Shown in pieces: positions 1 through 20,635 of a stretch of DNA of 64,000 nt (positions within the stretch are counted from its first letter, which is position 1; every line of letters starts with the position of its first letter). The notes under the pieces are model-generated. The model searched no databases, was not told where the DNA came from, and was given only the letters and a program-made list of their open reading frames with translations. Where the stretch lies: the NCBI GenBank assembly GCA_035536395.1, contig DATLOE010000003.1, positions 35,713 to 99,712 on the forward strand. Reading direction: 5' to 3'. This DNA comes from Candidatus Dormiibacterota bacterium (lineage in GTDB: Bacteria > Patescibacteriota > Saccharimonadia > UBA4664 > DATLOE01). Made by a program: the position numbers and the translations under genes.

Positions 1-76
1 CTTCAAATACATAAACATTTCGCTCAGCTAGAGCAATCGCCTTTTCGCTGACGTGTGGTGTAAGGAGTAGGCTCAT
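1..76 (-). CDS. rplW: 50S ribosomal protein L23, N-terminal fragment (runs off the window edge)
   Basis: The reverse complement reads MSLLLTPHVSEKAIALAERNVYVFE. Its ATG overlaps the rplD stop as ATGA, and the S10-operon order L3-L4-L23 is kept. Confidence 0.6.
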   Translation of the reverse strand, partial: MSLLLTPHVSEKAIALAERNVYVFE

Positions 77-777
77 TTGGCTTCTCCTGCTGCTACCTTA
101 GTCTTGGTTGCAGCTTTTGGCTGGGCCTTCTTCTCTGATTTTTTAGATTCTCCCAGCCAGTTTTCGATTTTGTCTGCGGCATCAGCCGTAATTACGACAG
201 TGTCGGCATTTAGAATCACAAAAACATTCAGGTAGTTAGCGGCGGAGACGACCAGCTCGGGGATATTACGGGTCGAGCGGTCTATGGCATCGGTTTTCTC
301 GGGCACTACCAAGAGCACTCTGCCGGTAACGCCAATCTTCTGCAGCAGCGCGAGGGCTGTTTTAACTTTGCCATTTCCGCCATCGAATGATTCCAGAATA
401 ATTACTTTCTTATCAGCAGCTTGGGCGCTCAGCGCCTGGCGAATAGCCAACCGGCGAACCTTTTGCGGAAGCTGAACTTTGTGATTCTCCTCGCCTGTTG
501 GGCCAAAAGTTACACCGCCGCCCTTCCAGTGAGGTATGCGGATAGAACCGGCCCTGGCCCGCCCGGTACCCTTCTGTCGCCAAGGTTTACGACCGCCGCC
601 GCGCACTTCGCCGCGGGTCAGCACTTTGGCCTGGGCGCTGCGGCCATTAGCCAGATAGGTGTTGTATGCCAGCTTTAAGAGATCGTGGTTCAGTTCCAGC
701 CCAAAGACTTCTTTGGCTAGCGTTACCTGAGCCTCTTTTTTAGCTCCGGTCTTGGAATATGCGGTTACCTTACTCAC
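73..777 (-). CDS. rplD: 50S ribosomal protein L4
   Basis: The 234 aa ORF carries the L4 hallmark RGGGRKPWRQKGTGRAR and lies directly downstream of rplC with an 8 nt overlap. Confidence 0.95.
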   Translation of the reverse strand: MSKVTAYSKTGAKKEAQVTLAKEVFGLELNHDLLKLAYNTYLANGRSAQAKVLTRGEVRGGGRKPWRQKGTGRARAGSIRIPHWKGGGVTFGPTGEENHKVQLPQKVRRLAIRQALSAQAADKKVIILESFDGGNGKVKTALALLQKIGVTGRVLLVVPEKTDAIDRSTRNIPELVVSAANYLNVFVILNADTVVITADAADKIENWLGESKKSEKKAQPKAATKTKVAAGEAK

Positions 778-1438
778 TTGCAGCCTCCTGGCGCTCAGTC
801 GGCTTGATTAGCTTGATCATTACCAAAGATTTACGCGGACCGGGCACGGCGCCTTTTATAGCTACTAGGTTTTTGTCGGCCTCTACCTGTACTACTTTCA
901 AGTTTTTGACGGTTGTGCGCTCACCGCCCATGCGGCCGGCCATTTTAATACCCTTAAAGACCTTCTGGGGGTAGGCGCCGCCGATAGAGCCGGGCTGGCG
1001 ATGGTTGTGCGAACCGTGGCTCTTGGGGCCGGTAGCAAAATTATGCCGCTTTACGGTACCGGCAAAGCCCTTGCCTTTACTGGTAGAAGTTACCTGCACG
1101 GTGTCACCTGCCTGAAAAATACCGGCGTCTATCTTAGCGCCGACCTTAATCGGCTCTTCACCCTCTACAGCCTCTACGTCAGTTACCGAATCTTCCATCC
1201 GTACCTCACGCAGAACCTGTGGAGTAGCTTCACTAAATGTGGCATGTCCGGCTTGCGGTTTTGCCGGGTTCTTGGCCTTGCCAAGCCCCATCTGAATTGC
1301 CATATAGCCATCTTTTTCGCCGGTCTTTACCTGAGTAACCACACAGGGGCCAGCCTCCAGCACGGTGACGCGCTGAACGTTACCTTCTGCATCGAAGATC
1401 TGTGTCATTCCCAGTTTTCGGCCCAAGATAGCCTTCAT
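770..1438 (-). CDS. rplC: 50S ribosomal protein L3
   Basis: The 222 aa ORF has L3 motifs (MKAILGRKLGMTQIF, FKGIKMAGRMG) and a GGAG ribosome-binding site upstream. Confidence 0.95.
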   Translation of the reverse strand: MKAILGRKLGMTQIFDAEGNVQRVTVLEAGPCVVTQVKTGEKDGYMAIQMGLGKAKNPAKPQAGHATFSEATPQVLREVRMEDSVTDVEAVEGEEPIKVGAKIDAGIFQAGDTVQVTSTSKGKGFAGTVKRHNFATGPKSHGSHNHRQPGSIGGAYPQKVFKGIKMAGRMGGERTTVKNLKVVQVEADKNLVAIKGAVPGPRKSLVMIKLIKPTERQEAASE

Positions 1439-1576
1439 CCCGTTTGTTTTGCTCCTTAAACATATAAAATCCTAGGATTCGATCGGTTTTCCGCCTTTAG
1501 GGCGAAACCCTATCAACTCCTAGTTGGGTTAATGTGTATCTGGTCCGGCGGGCGCCGGATGCATTACTACCAAGTG

Positions 1577-1606
1577 AATATACCAGTAAATATGCTCTCC
1601 TGTCAA
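1577..1606 (-). promoter_or_regulatory. Sigma70-like promoter for rplC (minus-strand sense: TTGACA, 18 nt spacer, TATATT), about 130 nt upstream of the start
   Basis: Read on the minus strand: -35 TTGACA at 1606..1601 and -10 TATATT at 1582..1577. The intervening 5' UTR (1440..1575) contains GC-rich hairpins such as ccggcgggcgccgg. Confidence 0.4.
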
Positions 1607-1633
1607 CAGATATAGCCCAGTTACTTTAACTAT

Positions 1634-1661
1634 TGACAACATAAGCTCTTTAGTGTATAGT
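1634..1661 (+). promoter_or_regulatory. Sigma70-like promoter (TTGACA, 16 nt spacer, TATAGT) for the small plus-strand ORF, which would be leaderless
   Basis: TTGACA at 1634-1639 and TATAGT at 1656-1661, with the first ATG at 1671 only 9 nt downstream. Confidence 0.4.
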
Positions 1662-1670
1662 ATTTGCCAT

Positions 1671-1889
1671 ATGAATACTAATGATTTGTTCTACAATTTA
1701 GAGCGCGCATACGGGCGGATTACAGCTATTAATATAGTCCGCTGGGTTATTGCTTACGTGGTATGGATATTTATCTACACCCAGTTGCCGGAGTCGGTTT
1801 GGGTCGTGCGGCCATTTATGACATTCGTGGCTCAAGTGTTGATAGTAGTTATTATGATCGCGGCTATCGAAAAAGCCCGTAAGATGTAA
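1671..1889 (+). CDS. Small hydrophobic membrane protein (72 aa from the ATG at 1671; the track ORF begins at a GTG at 1653)
   Basis: Two predicted transmembrane segments (VRWVIAYVVWIFIY, VAQVLIVVIMIAAI) and a promoter immediately upstream. No homolog recognised. Confidence 0.4.
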   Translation: MNTNDLFYNLERAYGRITAINIVRWVIAYVVWIFIYTQLPESVWVVRPFMTFVAQVLIVVIMIAAIEKARKM

Positions 1890-1946
1890 CGTCGCCTATC
1901 GTTCGGGTAAAGCAAGAACAAAAGGGTGAGGAGTTTAGAGGTATAC

Positions 1947-3725
1947 TCATGACGCCTTGCCTATTAGTTCGCAGGCAAAATTGGTTGTCCCTGCACCATC
2001 TGCATTCACCGTGGAGCTGTTTCCGCTGCCGATTCCAACATTAACCTGGAAGTAATCAGTTGTGCCGTTAGCTAGGAACGTTCCGGTTGTACTAAGAACC
2101 GGGTTTATGGCCCCGGGAATACCATACCACTCCGCAGCCGCTTTACCGGTGTTGTTATTAACGATAGACCAGCTAACTGTTTGGCTGGCGGCCAGGGTGG
2201 ACATATATATTTGGGCTGAACAGCGATAGTAGCCCTTGATCGTGGGAGTAAACCGGCTGTTGCTGGTATCAAACCAGTTGGATACGTCCCAATCCTCAGC
2301 GTTAAAGGTCACATTCACACCCGCGCCCCCTGGGGTTGGGCTTTGAGAGTTGGTCGTTTTTCTTACACGAAAGCTGCCGGCAGCAAATCCATTAGCATCC
2401 TTGCCGGTTGAGCTCACACTGACACTCTCTGTAGTAATAAACCCGTCTTTATCTATCACAAACTTATCGCCTAGGGAGCCGTTGGTAAGAACCAATAGCT
2501 TAGCCCCAGAGGTGGTTAAGTTGGTATTGGCTTTCAGCTGAAAAGCTATAGTGCTGGCACCATCAGCCTTATTAGAGAACAGTATGCCTCCGGAAGTATC
2601 TACACCCAGTAAGGTAGTCCCCGCCGCATTCTGGACTTGGAAGGCAGTAGTAGAGTTGGCGGCGTTTTTGAATAAAGCGGTACCTTCTCCGGTAAAGTTA
2701 TTAGAAACCACCAGGGAGCCACTGTTAGTTAGTGTGGCAGCGGCTGAACGATATAGGGCAACGTCAATATTTGCGCCTGAATACCAATCTATCTCACTGC
2801 TAGCATCCAGCAGTATGCTAGCTCCTGAGCGCATATCCAGTGCTGGGCCATTGATGTATATGCGGCCACTAAATACTCCGTTGCCTGCTACATCCAGAGT
2901 ATCGGTCGGTGTTTTGCCTATGCCTACCCAGGCGTTAGTGGTGTCGGCCACCAGCAGGTTAGCTCCAGCTGCATTCTGGATTCTGAAGGCAGTGGTAGAG
3001 TCGGCGGCATTACGATGCAGGAGTGTGCCATTGAACCGGTTGTTACCGGTAAAGGTCTGAGGGCCGGTGCCGTTTAGTAGGGCTATGTTAGAGCTTAGTG
3101 CACTATCTGCTACCTTGCCAGCAGTCGAGATGGTGTTTAGCTTAGAGTCAGCTATAGAGCCGGCCAGTTCAGCATTCTCTATCAGCTGGCCGAGTAGAGA
3201 GACGGAAGAGCTTAGTCTGGCGTTATCTAGAGTGCCAGAGGAAAGATTGGTGGCATTAAGGGAGGTAAGGGAGGCACCGGAGCCTGCGAAGGTACCGGCT
3301 TGAACCGTACCTGACACATTGATGTTACCGGTCTCTTGCACTCCTGGGCTGGTGGCCTGGAGTGAGACACAAGTGCCATTGGGGCAGGTGGCAGTACCAC
3401 TGGGGCCTTGGGCACCGGTGGCGCCGGTTGCACCTGTTGGGCCAGTGGCTCCGATTGCACCAGTGACTCCCTGGATGCCTTGTTCCCCTTGTGGGCCGGT
3501 GGAGCCTTGCAGGCCTTGAGATCCCTGGGAGCCTGGCGCACCTTGGAGGCCGGCTGCGCCGGTGAGGCCTATGGGGCCAGCAGTACCGGCTATGCCTTGT
3601 TCACCTCTTGGACCGCGCTCACCGGGGTAGGTTAGGAATTGATCAGCTAGGAGGCCGGCGCCTGAGCTAATGAGGGCGGTGGCTAGGATTAGGGTTAGAA
3701 GTTTGGGGGTGGTTAGGTTCATCAT
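1947..3725 (-). CDS. Membrane-anchored collagen-like (G-X-Y) fibre protein with fibre-type beta repeats and a C1q/TNF-like C-terminal head
   Basis: N-terminal hydrophobic anchor [18 protein letters not shown], then about 75 aa of GxY triplets ([13 protein letters not shown]...), then three copies of the module [17 protein letters not shown]. The C-terminus ([10 protein letters not shown]...[10 protein letters not shown]) resembles BclA/C1q-like domains. Its start overlaps the upstream gene's stop as ATGA. Confidence 0.8.
3098..3395. repeat. About 300 bp near-identical direct repeat, copy 1 (partner at 5581..5880)
   Basis: By eye the nucleotide sequence from cttagtgcactatctgctacc through ggggcaggtggcagt matches copy 2 at about 95%, with 75-85% identity continuing through the GGN collagen-coding region. 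Confidence 0.7.
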
Positions 3726-6316
3726 TCTGCCCTAAAGGTTATGCCATCAAGTGGGAGATACTCTGTAGCGCCAAAGATGTACAATACTTCACCTGCGGAT
3801 CCTGGAGTAAGATTTTTTGATTTAATTACGAAACCACCCAGTATATAGCCAGTACCAGAGCTCCATGAAGCAGTAGAAAACTCCGCATCAGATGTACCAT
3901 CGGGTGCGTACCCTGAAGGCAAAGTGAATATCCTACTAGCTGTTCCCGATGACCGTTTTGCCTGACCTTTAAGGTGAACTACTCCCATAGAATCCTTAAA
4001 GAAGGCAACTGGCCTGTTTGCATCATAATTACCCCAGCCCGTATTAAAGGCCGGCTCTCCGACACCACCTACAAGATGCCAATTTTCCTGCTTAATATAG
4101 CCATCTTTATCTATCGAGAACTTCTCCACTCCATTATTCTTGAGGGATAGCAGTTTAGCACCGGAGGTAGCTAGAGAGACGGTGGTGTTGAAGGTAAAAC
4201 CTACCGCAGTAGCTCCATCTGCTACGCTACTAAATATGCGTGCGTTACTGGTATCAACACCGAATAAGGTAGTCCCAGTTGCATTCTGCACCTGGAAGGC
4301 GGTGGTGGAGTTGGTGGAGTTTTTGAATAAGACTGTCCCCCTGACAGCTAGCTCCTGACCAACCGAGACAGATTGGGTAAAGGTGGCTGGTCCCTGCACT
4401 TGAAGTTGGCCGACCACATTGGTATTGCCCGCCGTCAATTCACCACCCGTCCCGCCTTCAGCCAAGTTTTGGCCGCCCAGACCAACCAGATCAACCGCCC
4501 CACCAATCTTCAGCCGGGAGACTGAGGCATAATAAATAGTGTTTTGAATGCTCTCACCATCATAACCAGCCATTACATAGACCCAGCCATTAGCGATGAT
4601 TGAGCTAGCTGCCCTTCTTGTTGTTGGAAGAGCGGCTAAGTTAGTACTCCAACTGCCTACAGACCCATCGGCATTCAACTTTCCATAGTGGACAGTGGCT
4701 GCGGAATTGCCACCAATTACATACACGTATCCGTCTGCTACTACTGATGAGTGGTTCTCCCGGATAGCAGGCAACGTATTACTATTGGTTGACCAAGCCC
4801 CAGTTGAACCGTCGGCGTTTAACTTTGCGTAGTAAACAGTTGATTGAGCAGCACTGTCGTTTGCACCACCAATCACATAGACATAACCGTTTGCCACAAT
4901 AGAGCTGTGTGAATTTCGAACAGCTGGCAGAGCGTTAGCATTGGTACTCCAGCTGCCAGTGGAGCCATCGGCGTTAAGTTTGGCGTAGTAGACAGTTGAT
5001 TGAGCACTAGCATTAAATCCACCCAATACATATACGTATCCATTTGCAACTACAGAACTGGCAAAACTTCGAGCGGCAGGTAGTGTATTAGAGTTGGTTT
5101 GCCAAGCATCGGTTGAGCCGTCGGCGTTGAGCTTAGCGTAGTAGACAGTAGAGTCTGGTGTGCGCCCACCAATCACGTAAATATATCCATTAGCCACAAC
5201 TGATGTATGGGCTGATCGTACGGCAGGCAAGGCATTCGCATTGGTGGACCAGGTTCCAGCGGATCCATCAGCATTTAGCTTGGCATAATAGACAGTGGAT
5301 TGGGCATTTCCAGATCCAGTCGAATTTTCTCCACCAATCATATACACAAACCCATTAGCAGTGACTGAAGAATGTAACCAGCGGACACCTGGCAAGGCAT
5401 TACTGCCAGTACTCCAACTCTGCAGTTCACCCGAATTTAGTCCGTTAAGAGTTAAATTGCCATTGGTAGTATCTACCTGAAAAAGACTACCTGCCGCTGC
5501 ATTCTGTATCTGGAAGGCGGTCGTGGAATTGGCGGCGTTTCGGTGGAGAAAGGTGCCGTTGAGTAAGGCTACATTGGCACTTAGTGCACTATCTGCTACC
5601 TTGCCGGCAGTCGAGATGGTATTTAGCTTAGAGTCAGCTATAGAGCCGGCCAGTTCAGCATTCTCTATCAGCTGGCCTAAGAGTGAGACGGAAGAGCTTA
5701 GTCTGGCGTTATCTAGAGTGCCAGAGGAAAGATTGGTGGCATTGAGGGAGGTTAGTGAAGCTCCGCTCCCGCTGAAGGAGCCGGCTTGAACCGTACCTGA
5801 CACATTGATATTACCGGTCTCTTGCACCCCTGGGCTTGTGGCCTGGAGTGAAACACAAGTGCCATTGGGGCAGGTGGCAGTGCCGGATGGGCCGGTGGCT
5901 CCGGTTGCACCTGTTGCACCAGTGGCTCCAGTTGCACCAGTGGCTCCCTGGATACCCTGCTCCCCTTGCGGGCCGGTTGAACCTTGGATACCTTGGGCGC
6001 CCTGCTCGCCTGGCGAGCCCTGCAAGCCGGCTGCACCGCTTAGGCCGATGAGGCCAGTGGCTCCCTGGGTACCTTGCTCGCCTTTTGGTCCACGCTCCCC
6101 AGGGTAGGTTAGGTACTGGTCGGCAATGAGACCGCCTGCGGCTCCGACTATGGCAGTTGTAAAGAAGATCATAAGTAGTTGGTTGAAGGAGAGGGAGAGT
6201 ATCCCGGCTTGATTCTTGAGTAACGCAAATAGACCCGTTGGGGGCGGGGTGTTTGGTTGGTGCGAATGCTTCGCAATGGAACCTTTGATGCCTTTTAGGC
6301 CATGAAGGTTAACCAA
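3722..6316 (-). CDS. Membrane-anchored collagen-like fibre protein with a six-blade Kelch-type beta-propeller and a distinct C-terminal domain. The start is uncertain: TTG at 6316 or ATG at 6172.
   Basis: Transmembrane segment [18 protein letters not shown], GxY triplets including (GAT)x5, a shared N-terminal module [30 protein letters not shown], and six repeats of the form [14 protein letters not shown]......P..R......[11 protein letters not shown]. Confidence 0.8.
4530..5450. repeat. Six tandem units of about 150 bp encoding the Kelch blades
   Basis: Repeated DNA units of the form ccaccaatcacata[cg]a[ct]a...cc[ag]tt[ag]gc.ac.a.tga, visible in the sequence and in the protein repeats. Confidence 0.6.
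5581..5880. repeat. About 300 bp near-identical direct repeat, copy 2 (partner at 3098..3395)
   Basis: See copy 1. It encodes the shared module [50 protein letters not shown]. Confidence 0.7.
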
Positions 6317-6357
6317 CCGGATGATAACTCCTCTTTAGTTTTTATTTACTCCACCTT

Positions 6358-6446
6358 GCTTATGCCAAGAACAGGGTGTTTAAGACCCCGAGAAAGCATA
6401 AGCGTGATGTGTAGTAATTATACCGCTTATGCTCAGGGAGTGTAAA
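6358..6446 (-). promoter_or_regulatory. Promoter (TTTACA, 18 nt spacer, TATAAT) plus three copies of the GCTTATGC / GCATAAGC motif upstream of the collagen-fibre operon
   Basis: On the minus strand: -35 TTTACA at 6446..6441 and -10 TATAAT at 6422..6417. Motif copies sit at 6358-6365 (forward), 6396-6403 (reverse) and 6425-6432 (forward, directly abutting the -10). Confidence 0.45.
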
Positions 6447-6455
6447 GGGGTAAAA

Positions 6456-6701
6456 TTAGAATCGCCAAGTGACAGTAATGCCGATACCGAAGAGGCCTAG
6501 CAATGAAGCAATTACAAGTATGGCGTACTCTATTTTGCGATCAATCTGCAGCTTTTCATGACGAACTGCAAGTAAGCCCAGAATCAGGCCGAAGGGCAGC
6601 AGGCGGGCCTCGTTAAAAGCAAACCAAACGCTTCCGATAATGAAGTACAGCAGGATTTTTAAAAAGTAGATGCTATCGAGTTCTTGTTTTACAGGTTTCA
6701 T
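6456..6701 (-). CDS. Small two-TM membrane protein (81 aa from the ATG at 6701; the track ORF extends to 6770)
   Basis: An AGGGG ribosome-binding site precedes the ATG at 6701, and the protein has two hydrophobic helices. The motif copy GCTTATGC lies at 6723-6730, 22 nt upstream. Confidence 0.4.
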   Translation of the reverse strand: MKPVKQELDSIYFLKILLYFIIGSVWFAFNEARLLPFGLILGLLAVRHEKLQIDRKIEYAILVIASLLGLFGIGITVTWRF

Positions 6702-6865
6702 ACCCCTATCTAACCACAAAATGCTTATGCTGTCATCTCCAATGCGCTTATCTTGGCGTTCCCACAACATTCCCCTTGCCCGCCTCAGAAGCTCTTGTTA
6801 ATGCTCCTAATGCCTAACGGCACCTATTGCCTGTAGGATGGAGACAGTAATAAAGGGGGTATGCA

Positions 6866-7089
6866 TGGCAAAAGAACGAGGCAAAATGAGTCGGGCCGAG
6901 GCCGGCAAGCTAGGCGGCGAGGCTACGAGTAAAAAACATGATTCAGAGTTCTACTCTGAGATCGGTCAGAAAGGCGGCCAAGAAAGCGGAGGGAACTTTA
7001 AAAATGACCCCGAGCGGGCCAGGGAGGCCGGCAAGAAAGGCGGCCAGGCATCCACTAGCCGGAGCAGAGAGGATACAGAAGAAATATAG
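6866..7089 (+). CDS. KGG-repeat stress-induced protein (YciG / Con-10-like)
   Basis: MAKERGKMSRAEAGKLGGEATSKK...GQKGGQESGGNF...AGKKGGQAS carries three KGG-type repeats. An AAGGGGG ribosome-binding site sits 6 nt before the ATG at 6866 (the track ORF starts at 6838). Confidence 0.6.
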
Positions 7090-7096
7090 CCTGATA

Positions 7097-7125
7097 AAAG
7101 AGCCCCTTCGGGGGCCTTTTTTATT
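7097..7125 (+). terminator. Rho-independent terminator after the KGG gene
   Basis: Hairpin gagcccc-ttcg-ggggc followed by TTTTTTATTTCTCTCTTT. Confidence 0.6.
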
Positions 7126-7305
7126 TCTCTCTTTAAAACAAAATAACGCCTTTGCTGGAGTGGAGTACAAGGCAGAATCGATATCTAAATAAGTTTATAT
7201 TTTGATGAGATGCAAGGCGGCGCTGAAGCGCGCCAGTGAGCAGTAGCCAAACCTACTGTGAATGCGCACTGGAAGCGCCAACGCCGCAGCTCGCGAAATA
7301 CAAAG

Positions 7306-7752
7306 TTATTGCTTGTAGTAGGAGCGGATTTGGAACAGAATGTACAACCCTATAACCGCGCTCACCAGACCGCTTACAATCTGACCGTTCATAATGCTGT
7401 AAACGAGGTTAACGATGTCACTGTAGAACACTAGGTTCCAGCCGCTCATCTTGCGGGCAAACAGGCCCGGCAGAGCTGCTATCATCAACACTACCTGCAC
7501 AATGAGGGCAATTAAAGCCGCGCCCAAACCGGCGGCTGCTGTAGCTCCCCCGAGGCCAGAAAATGGCAGTACGGCCGCGCCTAAGCCCAGCGCCACTAAG
7601 ATGGCCGGTGCCAGAAGCACTAATATTACGATGTTTATCCATGGAGCGTACTTTACTATCCAGTCTTTAGCGCCTTTGGGGATCTGGAAGGGAGCCTTTG
7701 TTACAAAATAATACTCCATCTTTTGCATGATACCTTGTGATTGCTGGGCCAT
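7306..7752 (-). CDS. 4-TM membrane protein, paralog A (unknown family)
   Basis: 148 aa. Shares with paralog B the features W(I/V)V(K/R)(Y/N)A.W, KGWNL, and a C-terminal QIRSYYK. Confidence 0.55.
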   Translation of the reverse strand: MAQQSQGIMQKMEYYFVTKAPFQIPKGAKDWIVKYAPWINIVILVLLAPAILVALGLGAAVLPFSGLGGATAAAGLGAALIALIVQVVLMIAALPGLFARKMSGWNLVFYSDIVNLVYSIMNGQIVSGLVSAVIGLYILFQIRSYYKQ

Positions 7753-7817
7753 AAGTTTTCCTTTACTTAAGGTTAATTTGCTTTAATTAAAGCACTACGG
7801 CACCCAAAAAGCAATAC

Positions 7818-7826
7818 GCTTATGCT
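7818..7826. promoter_or_regulatory. GCTTATGCT motif copy upstream of paralog A
   Basis: cgCTTATGCTTtg lies about 66 nt upstream of the ATG at 7752 and overlaps the stop of the preceding gene. Confidence 0.35.
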
Positions 7827-8281
7827 TTGTAATAAGAGCGAATTTGGAGCAGTATATAGAAGCTAATGCCGGTTATTACTACAGCCGTTACGTAATGGCC
7901 AAAAACGATATCGTATATTGTATGGGTTATGGCAGCCGCGGCCAGCAGATTCCAGCCCTTCATCTCTCTGCGCTCTAGCGGCTTAATGGCCAGTGCGATC
8001 AATATAAACTGGATGATTAATGCTACCGCCCCGCCGCTTATATCACTGGCTGAACTTGGTATACCCAGAAATGCCAGCGGCAGCTTGTTTATACCCAGCA
8101 CCACGGCCAGCGCTACTACCGGCAGATAGAGAATGGTGAGCAATATGGCTACCCAGTGAGCGTTGCGTACGATCCACTCCTTAGCCCAGAAAGGCAGGCG
8201 GTACCCGCCGCCATCGCTGTAGCCGCGCACGGCTGCCTGACGGCCAGAATTGCCCCGGTTTACCTTGCGTCCGCCCGCCAT
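7820..8281 (-). CDS. 4-TM membrane protein, paralog B
   Basis: 153 aa ending QIRSYYKA. A GAAGGGGAA ribosome-binding site lies inside the end of the upstream micro-ORF. Confidence 0.55.
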   Translation of the reverse strand: MAGGRKVNRGNSGRQAAVRGYSDGGGYRLPFWAKEWIVRNAHWVAILLTILYLPVVALAVVLGINKLPLAFLGIPSSASDISGGAVALIIQFILIALAIKPLERREMKGWNLLAAAAITHTIYDIVFGHYVTAVVITGISFYILLQIRSYYKA

Positions 8282-8284
8282 CTG

Positions 8285-8416
8285 CTATTCCCCTTCGACG
8301 CCCGGCAGATCTACCTTGTGGCCGTTCGTACAGTGGCCATGATTGTCTTGTTCCTGGCAGTCTTCATCTTGGCAGTTTAGAGCTACTTCTTCGCTACATT
8401 CTACGCATTTAGCCAT
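8285..8416 (-). CDS. Cys/His-rich 43 aa micro-protein, a putative zinc-binding peptide (below the ORF-track size cutoff)
   Basis: MAKCVECSEEVALNCQDEDCQEQDNHGHCTNGHKVDLPGVEGE, with 6 Cys and 3 His. A consensus AGGAGG ribosome-binding site sits 6 nt upstream, and its stop is 3 nt from the ATG of paralog B. Confidence 0.45.
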   Translation of the reverse strand: MAKCVECSEEVALNCQDEDCQEQDNHGHCTNGHKVDLPGVEGE

Positions 8417-8442
8417 AAATTCCTCCTGTTAGGTTTATTAAT

Positions 8443-8454
8443 GCTTATGCTTAT
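8443..8454. promoter_or_regulatory. Tandem GCTTAT-GCTTAT motif copy upstream of the micro-protein operon
   Basis: atGCTTATGCTTATat lies 27 nt upstream of the ATG at 8416. Confidence 0.35.
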
Positions 8455-8488
8455 ATTTTAGCACATCTGGTGAATATTTTAGAAAAAG

Positions 8489-9154
8489 TTAGCTCTTAAG
8501 CCGAGAGTACTCGGCAATAAGCTTTACCTTATCCTTAAAGTCAGGGGTCGCGCGCCACTTACTCAGTAGCTGCTTGTCTGTCCTTAGGCTATATGAAGCC
8601 CTAGATTTTTCCGCGCTTAAATCTTTAAGCAGTAAGTCGGTCATTAATTCCATAAATAATCTATTTTGGCCCTTACCAATGTCAACTTTGGATTGCCTAA
8701 TATATTCGATAATATATAAATGCATCAGCTCATGCAGTAGCGGATCTATAAAGTTCGGCCAGTCATAATAAAGATCAATGCGTTTTTTATCCGAGAAAGC
8801 AATATGCGGAGGAATTGCCGACAGGCCAATAATACAAATACCAGAAATTTTTACTGGTACAGTTGCTTCACAAATTTTTATTACTCCCCCTCCGTCTTGA
8901 GTCAGTTGTTTTTGCAACCGATCTTTTGCCTTTGCAAATAAGCCTCTGTTTTGCTTATAAAAGTTATCAAAGTAATCTTCTAGCGGTTTGAGCGCGCTTC
9001 CTTTTGGATAGGTCTGATAAATATTGGCGAGATCAGGATGCCGACTCACTATCACATTATAGTAGCTTAATCCTGACCACTCAGGCATTGAATATCCAAA
9101 TGCCCCTGCCTTAAGCGGGTCAAAATCCTTTGCCAGTTGGATTGTAAACTTCAT
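8489..9154 (-). CDS. Cytoplasmic HExxH-motif protein, a putative zinc metallohydrolase of unknown family
   Basis: 221 aa containing DPLLHELMHLYIIEY. A TATAAT at 9169..9164 lies only about 10 nt upstream of the ATG, so the transcript is probably leaderless. Confidence 0.45.
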   Translation of the reverse strand: MKFTIQLAKDFDPLKAGAFGYSMPEWSGLSYYNVIVSRHPDLANIYQTYPKGSALKPLEDYFDNFYKQNRGLFAKAKDRLQKQLTQDGGGVIKICEATVPVKISGICIIGLSAIPPHIAFSDKKRIDLYYDWPNFIDPLLHELMHLYIIEYIRQSKVDIGKGQNRLFMELMTDLLLKDLSAEKSRASYSLRTDKQLLSKWRATPDFKDKVKLIAEYSRLKS

Positions 9155-9210
9155 AGACCATCTATTATAAAGAAAAATGGCCAGTTTGGAGACATGGCCA
9201 GGTCTTTTTT

Positions 9211-9366
9211 CTACTTGTCCTCCCAGCCAGGGTATATCCGCTCCATGGCCTCGTCGGACTTCTGCTCGTCAGAGGCAGAACCCGGAGGGGAGGAGGGAGA
9301 TGAGGAAGAACCAGAGGAATCCGAGCTCTCTGAGCCCGAGGAACCGCTACTGGACTCTCCGTCCAT
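9211..9366 (-). CDS. Ser/Gly-rich acidic 51 aa micro-ORF (uncertain)
   Basis: MDGESSSGSSGSESSDSSGSSSSPSSPPGSASDEQKSDEAMERIYPGWEDK with AAAGGAG 5 nt upstream of the ATG. It competes with the low-complexity track ORFs 9137..9400 (+) and 9165..9482 (-). Confidence 0.3.
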   Translation of the reverse strand: MDGESSSGSSGSESSDSSGSSSSPSSPPGSASDEQKSDEAMERIYPGWEDK

Positions 9367-9547
9367 TTGCACTCCTTTGTCTGGGCATCCAATTTTTTAA
9401 GCTGCCGGACTATCCGGCCTCTTGTCGTATTGGGCGCCGTTTGATAGGTGCTTGGAGGGGATAGGCAGAGCCTAGACGCCATCTCCGTAGCAGTACGCTA
9501 ACTTATACAACAATTACTGCAATTATTCAATAGATGAGTAGCTATGT

Positions 9548-9886
9548 TTACAAATAAAACGCCAAGATGCCATGTTCGGCAATTTTTTCTCTATAGCCCT
9601 GAAAGCCATAATAAACCTTTTCGGCTTCCTCTAGGGATTCTATACCTGGCATAACCTTGCCAAAATCACCTGATTTATAGATGTCTTCTACAGATTTATA
9701 GTGCCTAATGTCTTTCACGGTCTTTTCGATCGTGTCGCTACCGCATTTGATTACTAACGTATCGCCAACTTCGATTTTCTTAAACTTAACTGTGCCAGCG
9801 CGGGTTTCTACCGTCTTCCGCCCCACCCGAATATCTTCGAACTCATCCTTATCCCCCGCCCTGAATCTTAGAATATGCTTTTTCAT
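9548..9886 (-). CDS. ASCH/PUA-like small domain protein
   Basis: 112 aa beginning MKKHILRFRAGDKDEFEDIRVGRKTVETRAG, a pattern that resembles ASCH domains. Assigned from memory. Confidence 0.4.
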   Translation of the reverse strand: MKKHILRFRAGDKDEFEDIRVGRKTVETRAGTVKFKKIEVGDTLVIKCGSDTIEKTVKDIRHYKSVEDIYKSGDFGKVMPGIESLEEAEKVYYGFQGYREKIAEHGILAFYL

Positions 9887-9922
9887 TTTGCCCCCACTGT
9901 GGATAAATCTATTGTCATAGCG

Positions 9923-9948
9923 CTTATGCTTGCTACAATAAGCATAAG
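9923..9948. promoter_or_regulatory. Perfect 9 bp inverted repeat CTTATGCTT-N8-AAGCATAAG, an operator-like site
   Basis: cgCTTATGCTTgctacaatAAGCATAAGta lies 37-62 nt upstream of the ATG at 9886. Confidence 0.45.
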
Positions 9949-10013
9949 TATAATATTCAGAACTAATGCGAGTGGGGAGTGTAGTTGCTTCCCTCTCGTT
10001 TTTTGATCCTTAA

Positions 10014-10214
10014 CTAGTCGTTAAGAAGATCATTAAGCGAGTCTTTGCCGCGCCGCTCGAGCAGCGTGTCGAGATACATATCAGAGCGAACATTAAAGTC
10101 CACCCCATATTGCTCCTCGATCGTGCGTACGTGGGTATCCCCACGCTTCTCACGAAGCGGGCCTCTGGAGTTTCGGGAGCGGTGACCCCGCATCCCTGGA
10201 GCATCCTTAGCCAT
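10014..10214 (-). CDS. Small hypothetical protein (66 aa from MAKDAPG; the track ORF extends to 10265)
   Basis: A GAAAGG ribosome-binding site precedes the internal ATG, and the protein is basic. The motif copy CTTATGCTTGCTAC lies at 10362-10375. Confidence 0.35.
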   Translation of the reverse strand: MAKDAPGMRGHRSRNSRGPLREKRGDTHVRTIEEQYGVDFNVRSDMYLDTLLERRGKDSLNDLLND

Positions 10215-10361
10215 TGCAAGCCTTTCTAGCCGGTGTCTTAAGGTGTTTATCCGGCCAGTCCTCAACCGAACACCACACCGTAAAGGAGAGAGGCCTCCCC
10301 ACTCACATCAATTCTCAAGGAATGAATACTAGGTTAGCAAAAACTCACGTGTCGCACAATA

Positions 10362-10375
10362 CTTATGCTTGCTAC
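10362..10375. promoter_or_regulatory. Motif copy CTTATGCTTGCTAC
   Basis: A 14 nt stretch identical to 9923-9936. Confidence 0.35.
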
Positions 10376-11058
10376 TTGAGGTAGTTGGGCAAGGCTTGGC
10401 GGTTTGGCAGCCACTTAGTATACCAACCAAGCAGTTCCGGAGGCAAAAGACTGTCATGCAATTCAGTACCGATGAAAGAATGCAATTCGTCAGTAAAATC
10501 AGTAGATCCCGGCAGCACACCCCTATGATGGTATGATGCAGTGCGTTGATCAAACGCCGCTTTGTGCTGACCATACACAATATTTAAATATGGGGTCAGG
10601 CGGTTTCTTTCAGATTCTGAACTAATAAACCACACGTAATGTAGATATTCATGGGCTAAAGTTGCCCTTTGCTCTAATAAATCTCTCTGTAAAATCTCCG
10701 GCGCCAAGTAAATAGTGCCGTCTTTAATAGCGCCATAGGCATGATATGAAGCTGCAAAGCAGCCTGTAGAGCCTGGTGGGCAACCCATTGGAAGAGGGGC
10801 AATCCTAGCCTTTGTTCTTAGTAAATCGTCTCGATTAATACCTAAATCTGCGCCCCACTGCTCAATGCGGCGATCAAGAACAAACTTAGGGTCAATCGGG
10901 AAAGAGCCAAGTCCTATTCTTGGGTTATAGCCTATCTTCTCTCGCACACTCTTGATAAGAGGGTGCTCAATCGCCGTGGGATCCAAGACCAAGCCAATTG
11001 CTAACACGGCAATGATGACTGCAACCTTAAAGCCCGTTTTGAAAACATGCTTTTTCAT
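10372..11058 (-). CDS. Secreted or membrane-anchored HExxH-motif protein, a putative zinc metallopeptidase
   Basis: N-terminal hydrophobic segment VAVIIAVLAIGLVL and the motif TLAHEYLHYVWF. Confidence 0.5.
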   Translation of the reverse strand: MKKHVFKTGFKVAVIIAVLAIGLVLDPTAIEHPLIKSVREKIGYNPRIGLGSFPIDPKFVLDRRIEQWGADLGINRDDLLRTKARIAPLPMGCPPGSTGCFAASYHAYGAIKDGTIYLAPEILQRDLLEQRATLAHEYLHYVWFISSESERNRLTPYLNIVYGQHKAAFDQRTASYHHRGVLPGSTDFTDELHSFIGTELHDSLLPPELLGWYTKWLPNRQALPNYLK

Positions 11059-11071
11059 CTTTTAGAAGTTA

Positions 11072-11839
11072 CTAGCTTTCTTTCTGATCCCAAATAATTA
11101 CTTCTTTGTGCAACTCTTGAACTGACTGAAGATAGAAGAGCATATCGCGAGCAGCTCTCTCGACTACATATCCGCGAAGTGAACGCCAATTTTCAACATT
11201 ATCTTGCGACCAGTCTTTTTCAGGAGAATTCAGTAAGAAAGGAAAAAGATTCACATTTTTCTCTAGTTCGGTTAATGCACGTCTTACTTTGAGCATTTTT
11301 GCATAAACGGTTTTTGGCATCACAGAAGAATAATACTGTAGATTCTCATTGGCTGATTTTCTTAATTCTTCAATATTTTTTATTAGGCTGTCCCACTTGT
11401 CGGGTGGTAGCTTAGTCATAGCTTGACCCAGGTCAATTGCAATTAAATTACTGAGTATAGCCTCTTGTGCAGCTTTAGTGGATTCTTCCTGACGGTCGGT
11501 ATCAATTTTGTATTGGGTTATATCAAAGCCTAAAGGTGATGACACCCAGATGATAAGCGTATTACGAAGTCTTTTCATATCCTCAAGGGCGGATTCCATG
11601 CCCTCGCGAAGGCTAAGCTTATCCTTCCTATCCTTCAGTACCTCGATGAAAAATACGGTGAGCAGGGAGCTAAAGGCGCCGGCAGAGAGGTTAAGGGTCA
11701 TGTCACTCCACCGAAAGTGCTTTTCCTGATAGCCTAATGCCACAAAGAGTCCAACCGACATCACCAAAAGGGCGAGAAAAATAATGATATTAGCACGAGA
11801 GTAAAGGAGCCTGTAAAATTTCCTAAAGGCCCGACGCAT
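11072..11839 (-). CDS. Membrane protein with two N-terminal TM segments and a long cytoplasmic helical region, unknown function
   Basis: 255 aa. Its start is 3 nt downstream of the rpsJ stop, so it is probably co-transcribed with tuf-rpsJ. Confidence 0.5.
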
Positions 11840-11842
11840 ACA

Positions 11843-12184
11843 TTACATCTTAATTTCTATGTCCACCCCAGCGGGGAGGTTCAAATTCATCAGGTTGTCT
11901 ACGGTCTTTGGCGTAGGCTCTGTAATGTCTATTAAGCGCTTATGTGTGCGCATCTCAAACTGTTCCCGCGCTTTCTTAAAAATGTGCGGGCTTTTAATAA
12001 CGGTAGTCACGTTTCTATCTGTCGGCAGCGGAATCGGCCCGGCCACTTTGGCGCCGGTACGAATCGCCGTATCTAGAATCTGCTTGGCAGACTGATCTAT
12101 CACCTTATTGTCATACGCCTTTAAGCGAATGCGTATTCTCTGTTTGGGTGCTTCAGTATTTTCTTTCTTTTTTGCTTCTGCCAA
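11843..12184 (-). CDS. rpsJ: 30S ribosomal protein S10
   Basis: Contains [22 protein letters not shown]...HKRLIDI. Confidence 0.95.
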
Positions 12185-12209
12185 GGTGCTATAGTTCCGT
12201 TATTATCCG

Positions 12210-13388
12210 TTACTTTAAGATCTTACTTACGACACCGGCACCTACTGTGCGTCCGCCTTCGCGAATAGCAAAGCGCAGACCGTCTTCCATGGCAATTGGG
12301 GCAATCAGCTTAACTTTAACGCTGATGTTATCGCCCGGCATGACCATTTCTGTGCCCTCCGGCAGGGTAACCTCGCCGGTAACATCGGTGGTACGAATGT
12401 AGAACTGAGGCTTGTAACCCTTGAAGAATGGGGTGTGACGTCCGCCTTCCTCTTTCTTCAGTACGTATACTTCTGCGTCGAACTCAGTGTGAGGGGTAAT
12501 AGTACCGGGCTTAGCCAGAACCTGGCCGCGCTCAATGTCATCGCGCTCAATACCGCGCAACAGGGCGCCAACGTTATCGCCGGCCTGTGCGTCTGGCAGA
12601 AGCTTCTTGAACATTTCTACCCCGGTAATCACGGTCTTCTTGGTAGCATTAATGCCGACAATTTCGACTTCGTCGTTTACAGCCAGCTTACCGCGCTCAA
12701 TACGGCCGGTAGCAACTGTACCGCGGCCTTTAATAGAGAACACGTCTTCTACCGGCATTAAGAACGGCTTTTCTACATCGCGCTTTGGCTCTGGTACGTA
12801 GGAATCCAGGGCGTCCATAAGGTCGGTAATGCTTTTTTCAGCATCGGCGTCGCCTTCTAGCGCTTTAAGAGCAGAACCCTTAACAATCGGGGTGTCATCG
12901 CCCGGAAAGTCATACTTCTTCAGTAAATCACGGATTTCGAGCTCTACCAGCTCAGCCAGCTCTGGGTCGGCCATATCCATCTTGTTCATGTAAACAATGA
13001 TGTAAGGCACACCAACCTGACGGGCAAGCAGAATGTGCTCGCGGGTCTGGGGCATTGGGCCATCGGCAGCTGAAACCACAAGAATAGCGGCATCCATCTG
13101 GGCGGCTCCGGTAATCATGTTCTTAACGTAGTCGGCGTGGCCTGGGCAGTCTACGTGGGCGTAGTGCCTTTTGTCTGTTTCGTACTCCTGATGAGAAGTA
13201 GCAATAGTAATACCGCGCTCTTTCTCTTCTGGAGCGTTATCAATATCTTCGTATTTGCGGGCCGTAGCCTGACCTGATTTGCTAAGTACGTGTGTAATAG
13301 CGGCTGTCAGGGTAGTTTTGCCGTGGTCAACGTGGCCAATGGTGCCGACATTGATGTGGGGCTTGGTACGTGTAAATGTTTCTGCCAT
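12210..13388 (-). CDS. tuf: Elongation factor Tu
   Basis: Contains [10 protein letters not shown] and DCPGHADY. Length 392 aa. Confidence 0.97.
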
Positions 13389-13501
13389 TTCTTCTCCTTA
13401 TGGGCTGTTTCATTTCAGATTGTTAACCCCGTGAGGACGATCAGCTATCTGAAATGAAGATTTAGTTAACAAAAAATAATGTCCGGTAATCGAACCATTA
13501 A

Positions 13502-13530
13502 ATTATAGGGAGAAGTTCTCCTTTTGTAAA
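13502..13530 (-). promoter_or_regulatory. Consensus sigma70 promoter for tuf (TTTACA, 17 nt spacer, TATAAT)
   Basis: On the minus strand: tttacaaaaggagaacttctccctataat. An about 110 nt 5' UTR follows, containing a 10 bp hairpin at 13411-13420 / 13447-13456. Confidence 0.45.
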
Positions 13531-13547
13531 GGGGGTAAAAAGGAAAA

Positions 13548-13572
13548 GCGGCCCGCTAATTGCGCGAGCCGC
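13548..13572 (-). terminator. Rho-independent terminator after the 143 aa gene
   Basis: On the minus strand: GCGGCTCGC-gcaatta-GCGGGCCGC followed by TTTTCCTTTTT. Confidence 0.5.
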
Positions 13573-14003
13573 TATGTGGCAAACCTTTCTGTACGCTGCC
13601 TGGAGACGACAACCATCTTAATGTACCTATCTGCCAGCTGGGCGTACATTTCCTGCTCCTCCTCAGTAAACCGCTGATTAATGATTATCGGCGCTAAATC
13701 GGCAGTAAATCGGATAGCATACGCCTCTATACTTGGCAGATACTTAAGAATCGCGTGGTGAGCACGCAGGTTTTCATCTAGCTCCGGGTAGTAACAGGTG
13801 CCCAAATTGAGCTTCCCGTACCACATCGCCTCAGCTTCGGGCCGGCCCTCTTTCTTCCACTGCTTTACCTGTTCTAGCATCGGCATAAGATACTGGTGGT
13901 GAATATTACCTCCAGCCGGTATTTCTGTAACGCCTCTCTGTGCCAGTGCACAGCAAAAACCTAGGAAAAAGTGTAGAGTAGGGTGCTCTTCCATGCTCCT
14001 CAC
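13572..14003 (-). CDS. Hypothetical protein (143 aa)
   Basis: An ORF with its own terminator. No recognisable motif. Confidence 0.45.
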   Translation of the reverse strand: MRSMEEHPTLHFFLGFCCALAQRGVTEIPAGGNIHHQYLMPMLEQVKQWKKEGRPEAEAMWYGKLNLGTCYYPELDENLRAHHAILKYLPSIEAYAIRFTADLAPIIINQRFTEEEQEMYAQLADRYIKMVVVSRQRTERFAT

Positions 14004-14149
14004 CTCGCTCGAAAATGTGTATATGCAACCCAGCTTTGTGCTCGGTTGGCTCGATTATAACAGATAAAACCGAAACCTGGCCTTATAGGGTATAATGGGT
14101 TCGATTTGGAATAAACCAAGTTGACCCTCTACAAGCGAAAGCGAGCCGC

Positions 14150-15112
14150 ATGAAGCTCAGAGATATGGAGTTCGGCAATGTCTTCTGTGCTCCGGGTGCT
14201 CGCGGCTTCGGCGGCGAGGGCTACCCGTTCCACAAGGCAGCCCGGCTGCTAGGTATGACCTGGAAAGGCACCACATTCGTAGCCAAAACCATGACCATGA
14301 GAGCCTGTATCGGCAACCTGCCGCTAAAGGGTGACGGGATGACACCGAAAGAGAAGCGGCCGAGGTCGGTTGTAGTTAAGCCATTCAGCGGGCACGTGCT
14401 GAATGCAGCCGGCCTGAGTAATCCGGGTGCGGCCTGGCTGTTTTCCCGAGCTGGGTGGAATAACCTCACGGAGCCTTTCGTGCTCTCCTTTATGGCGGCT
14501 GAGGAAACCCCGGAAGCGCGAATGAATGAGCTGAACCAGTTCGTAACAGTGTTCGAACATTACCTGTACGCACTGAGTGATTTCCAGGCACCGGTGGCGC
14601 TTCAGCTGAACTTCGGTTGCCCAAATATGAGCTTTAGGGCCGACGCACTGCTAGATGAAATCCGCGAAATGCTAGAACTCGCCTCTGGACTGAGCATTCC
14701 CCTGATTGCCAACTTCAGCCCGGTGACGCCAGAGCAGGTAGTTGCCCAGACGGCCTCACACCCGGCTTGTGACGCGCTCTGGATTGCCAACACCGTACCA
14801 TGGGGCTACCCCGAGATCGATTGGCAAAGGATCTTCGGTACAGAAGCTTCACCACTAAGAGAGCAGGGCTTTGAGCAGAGCGGAGGCTTAAGCGGCCCGG
14901 CCTGCCTGCCGCTCACGGCCGCACTGGTTAAGAAAGCCCGGGAGTACGGCATAAGTAAGCCAATCGTAGCCGGCAATGGCATTCAGCGAGCAGAAGACGT
15001 ATTACTGCTGAAGGATGTCGGCGCAGATGCCATAGCGCTTGGTATAGTTGGTATGGTTCGCCCCTGGAGGATGCGCGGCATCATCCGTACTGCAAATGAG
15101 GTGCTCGCCTAA
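14150..15112 (+). CDS. Dihydroorotate dehydrogenase-family (PyrD-like) TIM-barrel flavoenzyme
   Basis: Matches to class 1 DHOD motifs: NAAGLSNPG, NFGCPN, GGLSGP, VAGNGI. Confidence 0.55.
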   Translation: MKLRDMEFGNVFCAPGARGFGGEGYPFHKAARLLGMTWKGTTFVAKTMTMRACIGNLPLKGDGMTPKEKRPRSVVVKPFSGHVLNAAGLSNPGAAWLFSRAGWNNLTEPFVLSFMAAEETPEARMNELNQFVTVFEHYLYALSDFQAPVALQLNFGCPNMSFRADALLDEIREMLELASGLSIPLIANFSPVTPEQVVAQTASHPACDALWIANTVPWGYPEIDWQRIFGTEASPLREQGFEQSGGLSGPACLPLTAALVKKAREYGISKPIVAGNGIQRAEDVLLLKDVGADAIALGIVGMVRPWRMRGIIRTANEVLA

Positions 15113-15155
15113 ATAAAAAAGCCCCTGACTTAGAAGTCGGGGGCTTTCGCCTTTT
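15111..15155. terminator. Bidirectional intrinsic terminator between the convergent PyrD-like gene and fusA
   Basis: gcccctgactt-ag-aagtcgggggc, flanked by an A-run on the 5' side and a T-run on the 3' side. Confidence 0.6.
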
Positions 15156-17235: not shown

Positions 17236-17312
17236 GCTTCATAAATTAAAAATGGGCGTCGGCTGACACCTTGAATAGTCTATCTTATATAACCGGTTTA
17301 TTCAATAGAAAA

Positions 17313-17336
17313 GCGGGGTAACAAACGTTACCCCGC
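17313..17336 (-). terminator. Intrinsic terminator (gcggggtaac-aaac-gttaccccgc followed by TTTTCTATT on the minus strand)
   Basis: Seen in the sequence. It lies downstream of the 163 aa gene and upstream of the fusA promoter region. Confidence 0.55.
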
Positions 17337-17342
17337 ATGTAG

Positions 17343-17834: not shown

Positions 17835-17891
17835 CTTCTCTCCAATCGAAAGTAGGTAGCGACATCATACAGCCTGCGGGTGAGAGGTTCT

Positions 17892-17909: not shown

Positions 17910-17912
17910 AAG

Positions 17913-18575: not shown

Positions 18576-18620
18576 AATTAATTAATAGTCCTTCGTGCTA
18601 GAGCATACCAGTTAATTATT

Positions 18621-20631: not shown

Positions 20632-20635
20632 CGCC

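Follow-up and report, generated by a model that had tools for sequence, protein, structure and literature searches.

In the 64,000-nucleotide stretch of contig DATLOE010000003.1 analysed here (the window), rpsJ and rplC, the genes for ribosomal proteins S10 and L3, are separated by 10,404 bp on the minus strand, as measured from open reading frame (ORF) coordinates. We consider it roughly 75% probable that the intervening block (1440–11840) marks a long-standing boundary, tolerant of insertions, between two ribosomal transcription units with promoters of their own, and that it holds a conserved gene backbone along with two sub-slots whose content changes fast. In Saccharimonadia, the str and S10 transcription units would then meet after rpsJ and not before it: tuf and rpsJ would form one unit with a promoter at 13530–13502, and rplC, rplD and the genes that follow would form a second, starting from a sigma-70-type promoter at 1606–1577 and then a leader RNA at 1458–1527. 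Because rplC would start its own unit, no co-transcription would have to cross rpsJ|rplC, and this inter-operon spacer could have been open to insertions for a long time. The locus is framed by the following features.

73–777, minus strand: rplD (L4), ORF with Pfam Ribosomal_L4 on the matching gene of Logan contig L001; putative second gene of the distal S10-type unit
770–1438, minus strand: rplC (L3), ORF, exact product with Pfam Ribosomal_L3; predicted to head its own transcription unit
1458–1527, minus strand: conserved rplC leader RNA, candidate ribosomal-protein leader or attenuator; covariance model R1, 45.6 bits
1577–1606, minus strand: predicted rplC promoter, TTGACA-18-TG-TATATT, with 11/12 consensus positions and an extended −10 TG
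11843–12184, minus strand: rpsJ (S10), exact product with Pfam Ribosomal_S10, 25 nt after tuf; last ribosomal gene of the putative tuf-rpsJ unit
12210–13388, minus strand: tuf (EF-Tu), ORF, 80–82% identical to the tuf of relatives
13530–13502, minus strand: tuf promoter-like site from a promoter scan, directly after a strong terminator at 13573–13547

The rpsJ–rplC junction across bacteria

The block proteins are exact matches to HVE80629–HVE80640 (locus tags VNA68_00590–00645) of a metagenome-assembled genome (MAG) deposited as third-party annotation. The NCBI label of this MAG, "Candidatus Dormibacteraeota bacterium", conflicts with its marker genes. Since L3, L4, S10, EF-Tu and EF-G all have their closest relatives in assemblies assigned to Saccharimonadia, Saccharibacteria or Patescibacteria, we treated the organism as a member of the Saccharimonadia (TM7, Patescibacteria), whose cells are tiny and probably symbiotic, and the label or the bin looks wrong.

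We collected 160 loci that surround L3 homologues in genomes and metagenomes (these and further contigs are cited by L numbers). In 121 control loci from other phyla, the distance from rpsJ to rplC had a median of 71 bp and never exceeded 339 bp (0/121), as in the classical S10 operon, in which rplC directly follows rpsJ; at 10,404 bp, the window departs from this arrangement. Among Saccharimonadia, the 13 loci with both genes visible had gaps of 205 to 6449 bp (median 2,235), and L002 and L007 had >10 kb and >6.6 kb, respectively, upstream of rplC without rpsJ. Two other Patescibacteria loci had gaps of 1.6 and 5.1 kb. The spacer between tuf and rpsJ measured 3–40 nt in 13 of the 14 leader-bearing loci in which both genes were visible. 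The first-pass annotation of this DNA had placed rpsJ and rplC about 10.4 kb apart, which the coordinates bear out, and had called their junction universally contiguous. That premise holds for ordinary bacteria, in every one of the control loci, but is broken in most Saccharimonadia examined (205 bp to >10 kb) and always in Archaea, where uS10 is encoded apart from uL3-uL4-uL23 (PMC10833476).

The 5.1-kb gap belongs to L064, a Patescibacteria locus outside the leader-bearing clade; it spans 4895–10000 and holds large secreted or anchored proteins (351, 908 and 167 amino acids), and rplC is closely preceded there by a long perfect palindrome.

The nearest relatives, whose S10, EF-Tu and L3 are 93–94%, 80–82% and 65–66% identical to those of the window, each have a gap of 4.4–6.4 kb. 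These gaps share a collinear backbone: DUF308, a pair of paralogous small membrane proteins, RarA and, adjoining rplC, another small membrane protein. Three of these genes persist in the window and are listed here together with the contents of the relatives' gaps.

6456–6770, minus strand: mem6456 (mem), small membrane protein of the backbone; orthologues 43–61% identical in the gaps of L002, L003, L007, L008, L082, L162 and L163
7306–7752, minus strand: tm7306 (tmB), small multi-transmembrane protein of the backbone; same-position orthologues 66% identical in L162 and 63% in L163
7820–8281, minus strand: tm7820 (tmA), tm7306 paralogue of the backbone; orthologues 39–43% identical in L162 and L082, order kept
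L163 gap, rpsJ to rplC: MIP, DUF308, tmA, tmB, RarA, mem
L162 gap, rpsJ to rplC: DUF308, 164-amino-acid protein, tmA, tmB, RarA, mem, 757-amino-acid spike-like protein (assigned by eye from sequence; no Pfam match)
L082 gap, first part from rpsJ: histidine-phosphatase-like protein (by eye), DUF308, tmA, RarA, mem
L082 gap, rplC end, after mem: cupin-like protein (by eye), methyltransferase-like protein (by eye)

The order tmA-tmB-(RarA)-mem-rplC is collinear in L162, L163, L082, L002, L008, L007 and L003. In the sister clade formed by L002, L003, L007 and L008, tmB, RarA and/or mem stand directly upstream of rplC, and mem orthologues in relatives either adjoin rplC or come after RarA. A rough L3 tree placed all multi-kb gaps, that of the window included, within two sister clades. 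Because the window keeps tmA, tmB and mem with native composition, in the same gap and the same order as relatives whose L3 is only 56–66% identical, the interruption is, by this comparison, an old lineage trait that predates the divergence of these lineages. Distant tmB homologues occur in unrelated gene contexts, which makes the linkage a trait of the clade and not a property of the tmB family. No remnants of RarA, DUF308 or MIP were detected inside the window gap (E up to 5).

The tm7306 and tm7820 proteins are 34–39% identical to each other. The tmB family has more than 880 members and is otherwise unnamed; the NCBI name "chromate transporter", given to tmB and some of its homologues, has no Pfam or NCBIfam support.

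In L002, a complete Saccharimonadia chromosome (OY970378.1), rpsJ was not found within 10 kb of rplC, and ORFs at 4788–5791 and 8983–9777 upstream of rplC look like integrase or transposase genes; these calls were made by eye from sequence, without a family scan. Because such ORFs lie in this gap, mobile elements probably land between rpsJ and rplC in some lineages.

The rplC promoter and leader RNA

The pattern TTGAC[AG]-N16-19-TAnnnT occurred exactly once, 114–172 nt upstream of rplC, in 19/19 Saccharimonadia loci, against a background of 0.019 per 260 nt, and it was kept even where rpsJ lay only 205 bp away. Between this promoter and rplC there was always a conserved element of the 5′ untranslated region, as expected of a ribosomal-protein leader. 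It takes the form of a long irregular hairpin, composed of P1, a single bulged G, P2 and an apical GG-stem-GGAAACC; a U-rich tract and then the Shine-Dalgarno sequence come after it. Since promoter and leader exist even with a 205-bp gap, the junction would already have been an operon boundary there.

A covariance model (R1) was built from a structure-blind MAFFT alignment of 15 sequences, in which RNAalifold found 13 pairs. Model R1 gave one match per Saccharimonadia locus (22 loci and the window, 40–68 bits), always directly 5′ of rplC; these included L162 and L163, both outside the training set. Neither the roughly 140 other loci nor the rest of the window gave a significant match, in a search of about 2.1 Mb overall. 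The secondary structure is supported by covariation, with changes on both sides in 12/13 pairs, and 90.1% of cells were paired, versus 27–48% when the partners were slid. None of 500 shuffles reached the covariation score, and the minimum-free-energy fold had a z of −2.45. Rfam 15 gave no match at gathering score over the whole window and no family at E up to 10 in 1300–1750. The comparative data thus strongly back the earlier suggestion that a dedicated promoter and a structured 5′ untranslated region precede rplC.

By analogy with known leaders, the element is most likely a ribosomal-protein-responsive attenuator or translational operator, which would make the second unit autoregulatory through binding of an operon product; our best guess for the ligand, from the E. 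coli S10 leader, is L4. Promoter and covarying leader together make a concrete candidate for a new ribosomal-protein autoregulatory RNA, and the most interesting outcome of this analysis is that the leader may found a new ribosomal-protein leader family. To our knowledge, essentially nothing is known about regulation in this phylum, and the literature, incompletely covered, yielded no paper on the S10-operon split or an rplC leader in Saccharibacteria or the Candidate Phyla Radiation (CPR).

Genes of the block and alternative explanations

The gene content named by the first-pass annotation was found throughout: two collagen-like genes, a KGG gene and an ASCH gene by Pfam, two HExxH motifs, and the four-transmembrane paralogues. 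Its remark that parts of the block are AT-rich also stood. Against 49 genes outside the block (GC 0.514 ± 0.030; GC at third codon positions, GC3, 0.555 ± 0.054), the composition of the block is a mosaic. The backbone genes look native (GC3 0.51–0.61, codon fit +0.05 to +0.13), as does col1, the first of the collagen-like genes. Four genes (8489–9154, 9548–9886, 10372–11058 and 11072–11839) fall 2–3.7 standard deviations below genome GC, with negative codon fit as well; in composition, the third of the block nearest rpsJ is therefore foreign. This stretch contains the following features.

8489–9154, minus strand: HExxH protein, 221 amino acids, AT-rich orphan; HELMH motif, GC 0.403, GC3 0.394
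9548–9886, minus strand: ASCH-domain protein, AT-rich; Pfam ASCH PF04266, E 2.2e-5, 25.5 bits versus a cutoff of 21.2; GC 0.426
10014–10265, minus strand: ORF of 83 amino acids, uncertain status, ORF only
10372–11058, minus strand: hexxh10372, HExxH membrane-anchored protein, 228 amino acids, AT-rich; HEYLH motif, GC 0.458, GC3 0.434
11072–11839, minus strand: orf11072, 255 amino acids, N-terminal transmembrane hairpin and helical bundle; GC 0.418, GC3 0.424

The four AT-rich genes had no orthologue in the relatives' gaps, except for a weak (23%) match of hexxh10372 in L008. The two HExxH proteins are mutually unrelated, and searches of PDB sequences returned only chance-level matches for both. 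The protein at 8489–9154 had no family or PDB match, and hexxh10372 gave only SprT-like (E 0.044) in Pfam at E up to 5. Only five homologues of hexxh10372 were found among 5.8 billion proteins, and the two with readable context (L170 10001–10693, L171 325–942) lie on phage-like contigs bearing terminase and HNH genes, which hints at gene exchange between phage and host. The ASCH protein also matches a phage family (phrog_19935, E 4.2e-7). The orf11072 family comprises 63 representatives, all unannotated, whose alignments favour the long form; its AlphaFold2 (AF2) model is all-helical (pLDDT 94.5) and found no PDB fold match at E ≤ 0.001. PADLOC detected no defence family in ten block or neighbouring proteins, and exact-sequence context look-ups for orf11072, tm7306 and P0001 returned no record. 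Taken at face value, these sequence features suggest that the AT-rich stretch 8489–11839 was probably acquired horizontally, at least in part from phages.

As noted in the first pass, the two genes at 10372–11839 abut rpsJ: 3 nt separate the rpsJ stop from the orf11072 start and 13 nt separate orf11072 from hexxh10372, and no terminator-like site was predicted among the three genes. With these tight gaps, no such site and support for the long form of orf11072, read-through is plausible, and both genes probably ride on transcription from tuf-rpsJ.

In the regions 9155–9547 and 9887–10371, the ORFs on the two strands are all short, overlapping or uncertain; among them are a Ser/Gly-rich ORF of 53 amino acids and the 83-amino-acid ORF. 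The latter had no family match and was probably left uncalled in the NCBI annotation, in which consecutive tags (00635 and 00640) stand on either side. A plus-strand promoter-like site (9912–9939) and a terminator-like site (9974–9993) lie about 35 nt apart in the second region.

The second recent-looking sub-block is the pair of collagen-like genes at the rplC end.

1947–3725, minus strand: col1, collagen-like fibre with N-terminal anchor; Pfam Collagen E 2.5e-13, tail-fibre-like stalk, possible C1q/TNF-like head
3722–6316, minus strand: col2, collagen-like fibre with Kelch beta-propeller; Pfam Collagen E 6.5e-14 and Kelch families
6417–6446, minus strand: promoter-like site before col2-col1, TTTACA-18-TATAAT, 11/12 consensus, consensus match only

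The two genes are tandem paralogues whose 5′ parts are 77–90% identical at the nucleotide level; col2 overlaps the start of col1 by 4 nt, and the true col2 start possibly lies near 6172. Gly-X-Y repeats score above the Pfam Collagen cutoff in both. Both proteins have a hydrophobic anchor at the N terminus, about 25 Gly-X-Y triplets and a stalk of repeats that tail-fibre-like proteins share. They differ in their heads: that of col2 is a Kelch propeller, and that of col1 may be a C1q/TNF-like jelly roll. The jelly roll is a lead and not a finding: the Pfam C1q match (E 0.016, 15.8 bits) falls below the 23.7-bit cutoff, and the AF2 model of the head is of low confidence (pLDDT 53.5), its best fold matches being TNF/C1q-like with template-modelling (TM) scores of only 0.34–0.43. 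The col1 and col2 proteins can reasonably be read as putative trimeric surface fibres with exchangeable tips, which may serve in attachment, and the pair probably has its own promoter.

At least three further collagen-like paralogues are encoded on other contigs of the same MAG (VNA68_02850, _01680 and _02170), and col1 and col2 look like products of intragenomic expansion rather than import; collagen-family proteins are also labelled P0134, P0135 and P0183. The corresponding mem|rplC sub-slot of L162 holds the unrelated spike-like protein. Saccharibacteria homologues of the col family carry varied C-terminal domains (Peptidase_S74, Collar, DUF1349, Kelch) in a modular, head-swapping pattern. 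We did not adopt a reading of col1 and col2 as prophage remnants: the PHROG tail-fibre matches of col1 are driven mainly by collagen and stalk repeats, and its non-collagen part had no match in 50,697 phage records (INPHARED). No paper on collagen-like proteins in Saccharibacteria was found in the literature covered, which was incomplete.

The remaining features of the block are these.

1653–1889, plus strand: orf1653, hydrophobic ORF of 78 amino acids, divergent from rplC, with a promoter-like site at 1633–1661; gene-called on Logan contig L001 too
6838–7089, plus strand: KGG-repeat stress-type protein; Pfam KGG PF10685, E 5.1e-16, 59 bits versus a cutoff of 20.4
7101–7116, both strands: bidirectional terminator-like hairpin, GC-rich stem and T run on both strands, separating the KGG gene from the convergent tm7306
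8285–8416, minus strand: Cys-rich ORF of 43 amino acids, 3 nt upstream of tm7820, specific to the window genome

No family match was found for orf1653, and the Cys-rich ORF had no homologue in any relative's gap. Given the bidirectional terminator, the promoter-like site of col2-col1 and the divergent orf1653, the block would comprise several transcription units and not one module. Membrane and stress themes recur among the backbone genes (DUF308/HdeD-like, aquaporin, tmA/tmB, mem) and in the KGG gene, whose functions here are putative.

Another possibility is that the location is adaptive, the membrane, surface and stress genes acting as an envelope or attachment module coupled to growth and expressed in step with the translation machinery through read-through from the very strong tuf promoter. 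Across relatives, gap content is strongly biased to membrane and secreted proteins (DUF308, aquaporin, tmA/tmB, mem, fibre- and spike-like proteins, and a CHAP-domain protein in L084, its domain called by eye without a family scan), the L064 gap outside the Saccharimonadia also holds large secreted proteins, nearly every gap gene points the same way as the ribosomal genes, and the first two genes after rpsJ are spaced by only 3 and 13 nt. We nevertheless think this explanation unlikely: content turns over heavily between relatives, gaps also hold RarA, NUDIX, methyltransferase, cupin and transposase-looking genes, the bidirectional terminator and internal promoter-like sites split the block into several units, and an abundance of uncharacterised membrane proteins is in any case typical of small CPR genomes.

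A further explanation, close to the acquired or lineage-specific accessory island suggested in the first pass, takes the whole 10.4-kb block as a single island that entered an intact S10 operon recently. The four AT-rich genes with poor codon fit, the phage context of the hexxh10372 homologues and the fact that all block proteins are singletons at 90% clustering would suit such an event, to which we give little chance. An island would be expected at a site that is unoccupied in related genomes, and here the relatives' site is filled, with tm7820, tm7306 and mem6456 orthologous, in order and native in composition. The earlier remark that the block has no mobility genes agrees with our scans: no integrase, transposase or recombinase family was found in any scanned ORF of 1440–11840 (Pfam, NCBIfam, PHROG). 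There is also no tRNA in the block, the sole tRNA of the window lying at 33458–33541, and no direct or inverted repeats were found at the block borders. The collagen-like family has other copies in the same genome, and the rplC promoter and leader are present even in relatives with a 205-bp gap. The first pass had itself proposed that relatives with the same interruption and gene content, together with uniform composition, would speak for an ancient trait; the interruption is indeed the same and the content partly shared, but the composition is not uniform, and only the AT-rich stretch and the collagen-like genes look recent. Overall, the first-pass interpretation is borne out in part.

That the separation is an artefact of assembly or binning has next to no probability, for although the source is a MAG whose taxonomic label clashes with its marker genes, the same split and shared genes recur in at least nine other assemblies from different samples, and three short, independently assembled Logan contigs of run SRR8544467 are 100% identical to the window at 1–3122, 9813–11112 and 11119–12428, crossing both junctions and reaching inside the block, which makes a chimeric join very unlikely.

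Under the preferred reading of an old inter-operon boundary, the common ancestor with the nearest relatives would have had a gap of about 4–5 kb with (MIP)-DUF308-tmA-tmB-RarA-mem. The window would be a derived mosaic that kept tmA, tmB and mem, lost DUF308 and RarA from the gap, and gained the KGG gene, a tandem collagen-like pair from a family represented elsewhere in the genome and, next to rpsJ, the AT-rich orphan block 8489–11839, the last probably by horizontal transfer and at least in part from phages. Several points weigh against this account. The backbone amounts to 3 of about 14 genes in the window gap, and the relatives are too distant (L3 at most 66% identical) for the timing of the gains to be resolved. 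Low GC of the orphans could reflect low expression or relaxed selection, and the phage context concerns one orphan and two contigs. Statements on promoters, terminators and read-through draw on consensus and comparative signals. The U tract after the leader hairpin is broken by A residues, is weak in L006 and L084, and was not called by a simple terminator scan; because it is imperfect and uncalled, attenuation cannot be taken as given, and an effect of the leader on translation or stability is an alternative.

Two further breaks occur in the same gene row of the window. Between fusA and tuf (1.8 kb, 13389–15153) lie an opposite-strand DHO_dh-like gene and an ORF of 143 amino acids, and between rpsG and fusA (3.4 kb, 17236–20690) lie five ORFs, one encoding a NUDIX protein. 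The nearest relatives, L162 and L163, have tight spacing at both junctions, and the fusA-tuf distance varies from 151 to 3058 bp across Saccharimonadia.

Comparison with known systems

S10 and L3 belong to a syntenic block of ribosomal proteins that is widely used for CPR phylogenomics and bin checks. Because 0.2 to >10 kb of variable DNA separates them in Saccharimonadia, fragmented assemblies will often put S10 on another contig, as happened with the Logan contigs here, where the L3 and S10 halves are on separate contigs (L001 and L168). The gap is flanked by rpsJ (70–94% identical) and L3 (56–66%) among the relatives examined, and primers or probes on these conserved flanks could recover strain-specific surface and fibre genes of uncultured Saccharimonadia, which are plausible host-attachment factors.

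In Gammaproteobacteria, insertions of several genes are known to separate operons of the rpoBC-str-S10-spc-alpha supercluster (PMC6735719). As described by Brandis, Cao and Hughes (2019) and Brandis (2021, PMC8046335), the operons stay collinear and unrelated genes gather at their borders over long spans of evolution, which is also the case here. Those insertions occupy classical borders such as tufA|rpsJ, whereas the border in the window lies one gene further on, at rpsJ|rplC, which is intact in the 121 control loci, and unlike the supercluster cases the window gap combines a conserved backbone with variable sub-slots. What is new here is a permissive border inside what is elsewhere the S10 operon, lineage-wide and with its own promoter and leader.

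The col1 and col2 proteins share a Gly-X-Y stalk with a variable globular C-terminal domain with Scl1/Scl2, Lcl, BclA and the collagen-containing tail fibres of phages. Their scores against the NCBIfam models of Scl and Lcl (38–45 bits) are below the cutoffs of 325–500, and in contrast to Scl and Lcl they have an N-terminal transmembrane anchor, with LPXTG in neither sequence. A counterpart of the C1q-like head of BclA is weakly indicated in col1.

Cyanobacterial and plastid str operons end in tufA-rps10. As in Archaea (PMC10833476), S10 in the window goes with an elongation-factor gene, and a separate unit would begin with the L3-L4-L23 cluster. Unlike in Archaea, the organism is bacterial (Patescibacteria) and both halves are still neighbours in the same orientation, with a variable gap between them, so that the likeness is probably convergent.

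The E. coli S10 leader directs L4-mediated, NusA-dependent attenuation and translational repression (PMC3616713). Both it and the window leader are structured, have U residues after a hairpin and stand at the 5′ end of an L4-encoding operon. The E. coli element precedes rpsJ, has five hairpins and is confined to Gammaproteobacteria, whereas the window leader precedes rplC, is a single long irregular hairpin and has no sequence or Rfam similarity to it. The only described ribosomal-protein leader candidate directly upstream of rplC-rplD-rplW-rplB is L4-Archaeoglobi (Eckert and Weinberg 2020, PMC7247131), which is archaeal; the window leader matched neither it nor any other Rfam family at E up to 10. 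Tentatively, and at somewhat under even odds, we suggest that Saccharimonadia re-partitioned str and S10 in an archaeal-like way (tuf-S10 | L3-L4 onwards) and evolved a previously undescribed rplC leader as an attenuator responsive to a ribosomal protein, probably L4. If regulatory, this leader would represent an independent evolutionary answer to the problem that the S10 leader solves in E. coli.

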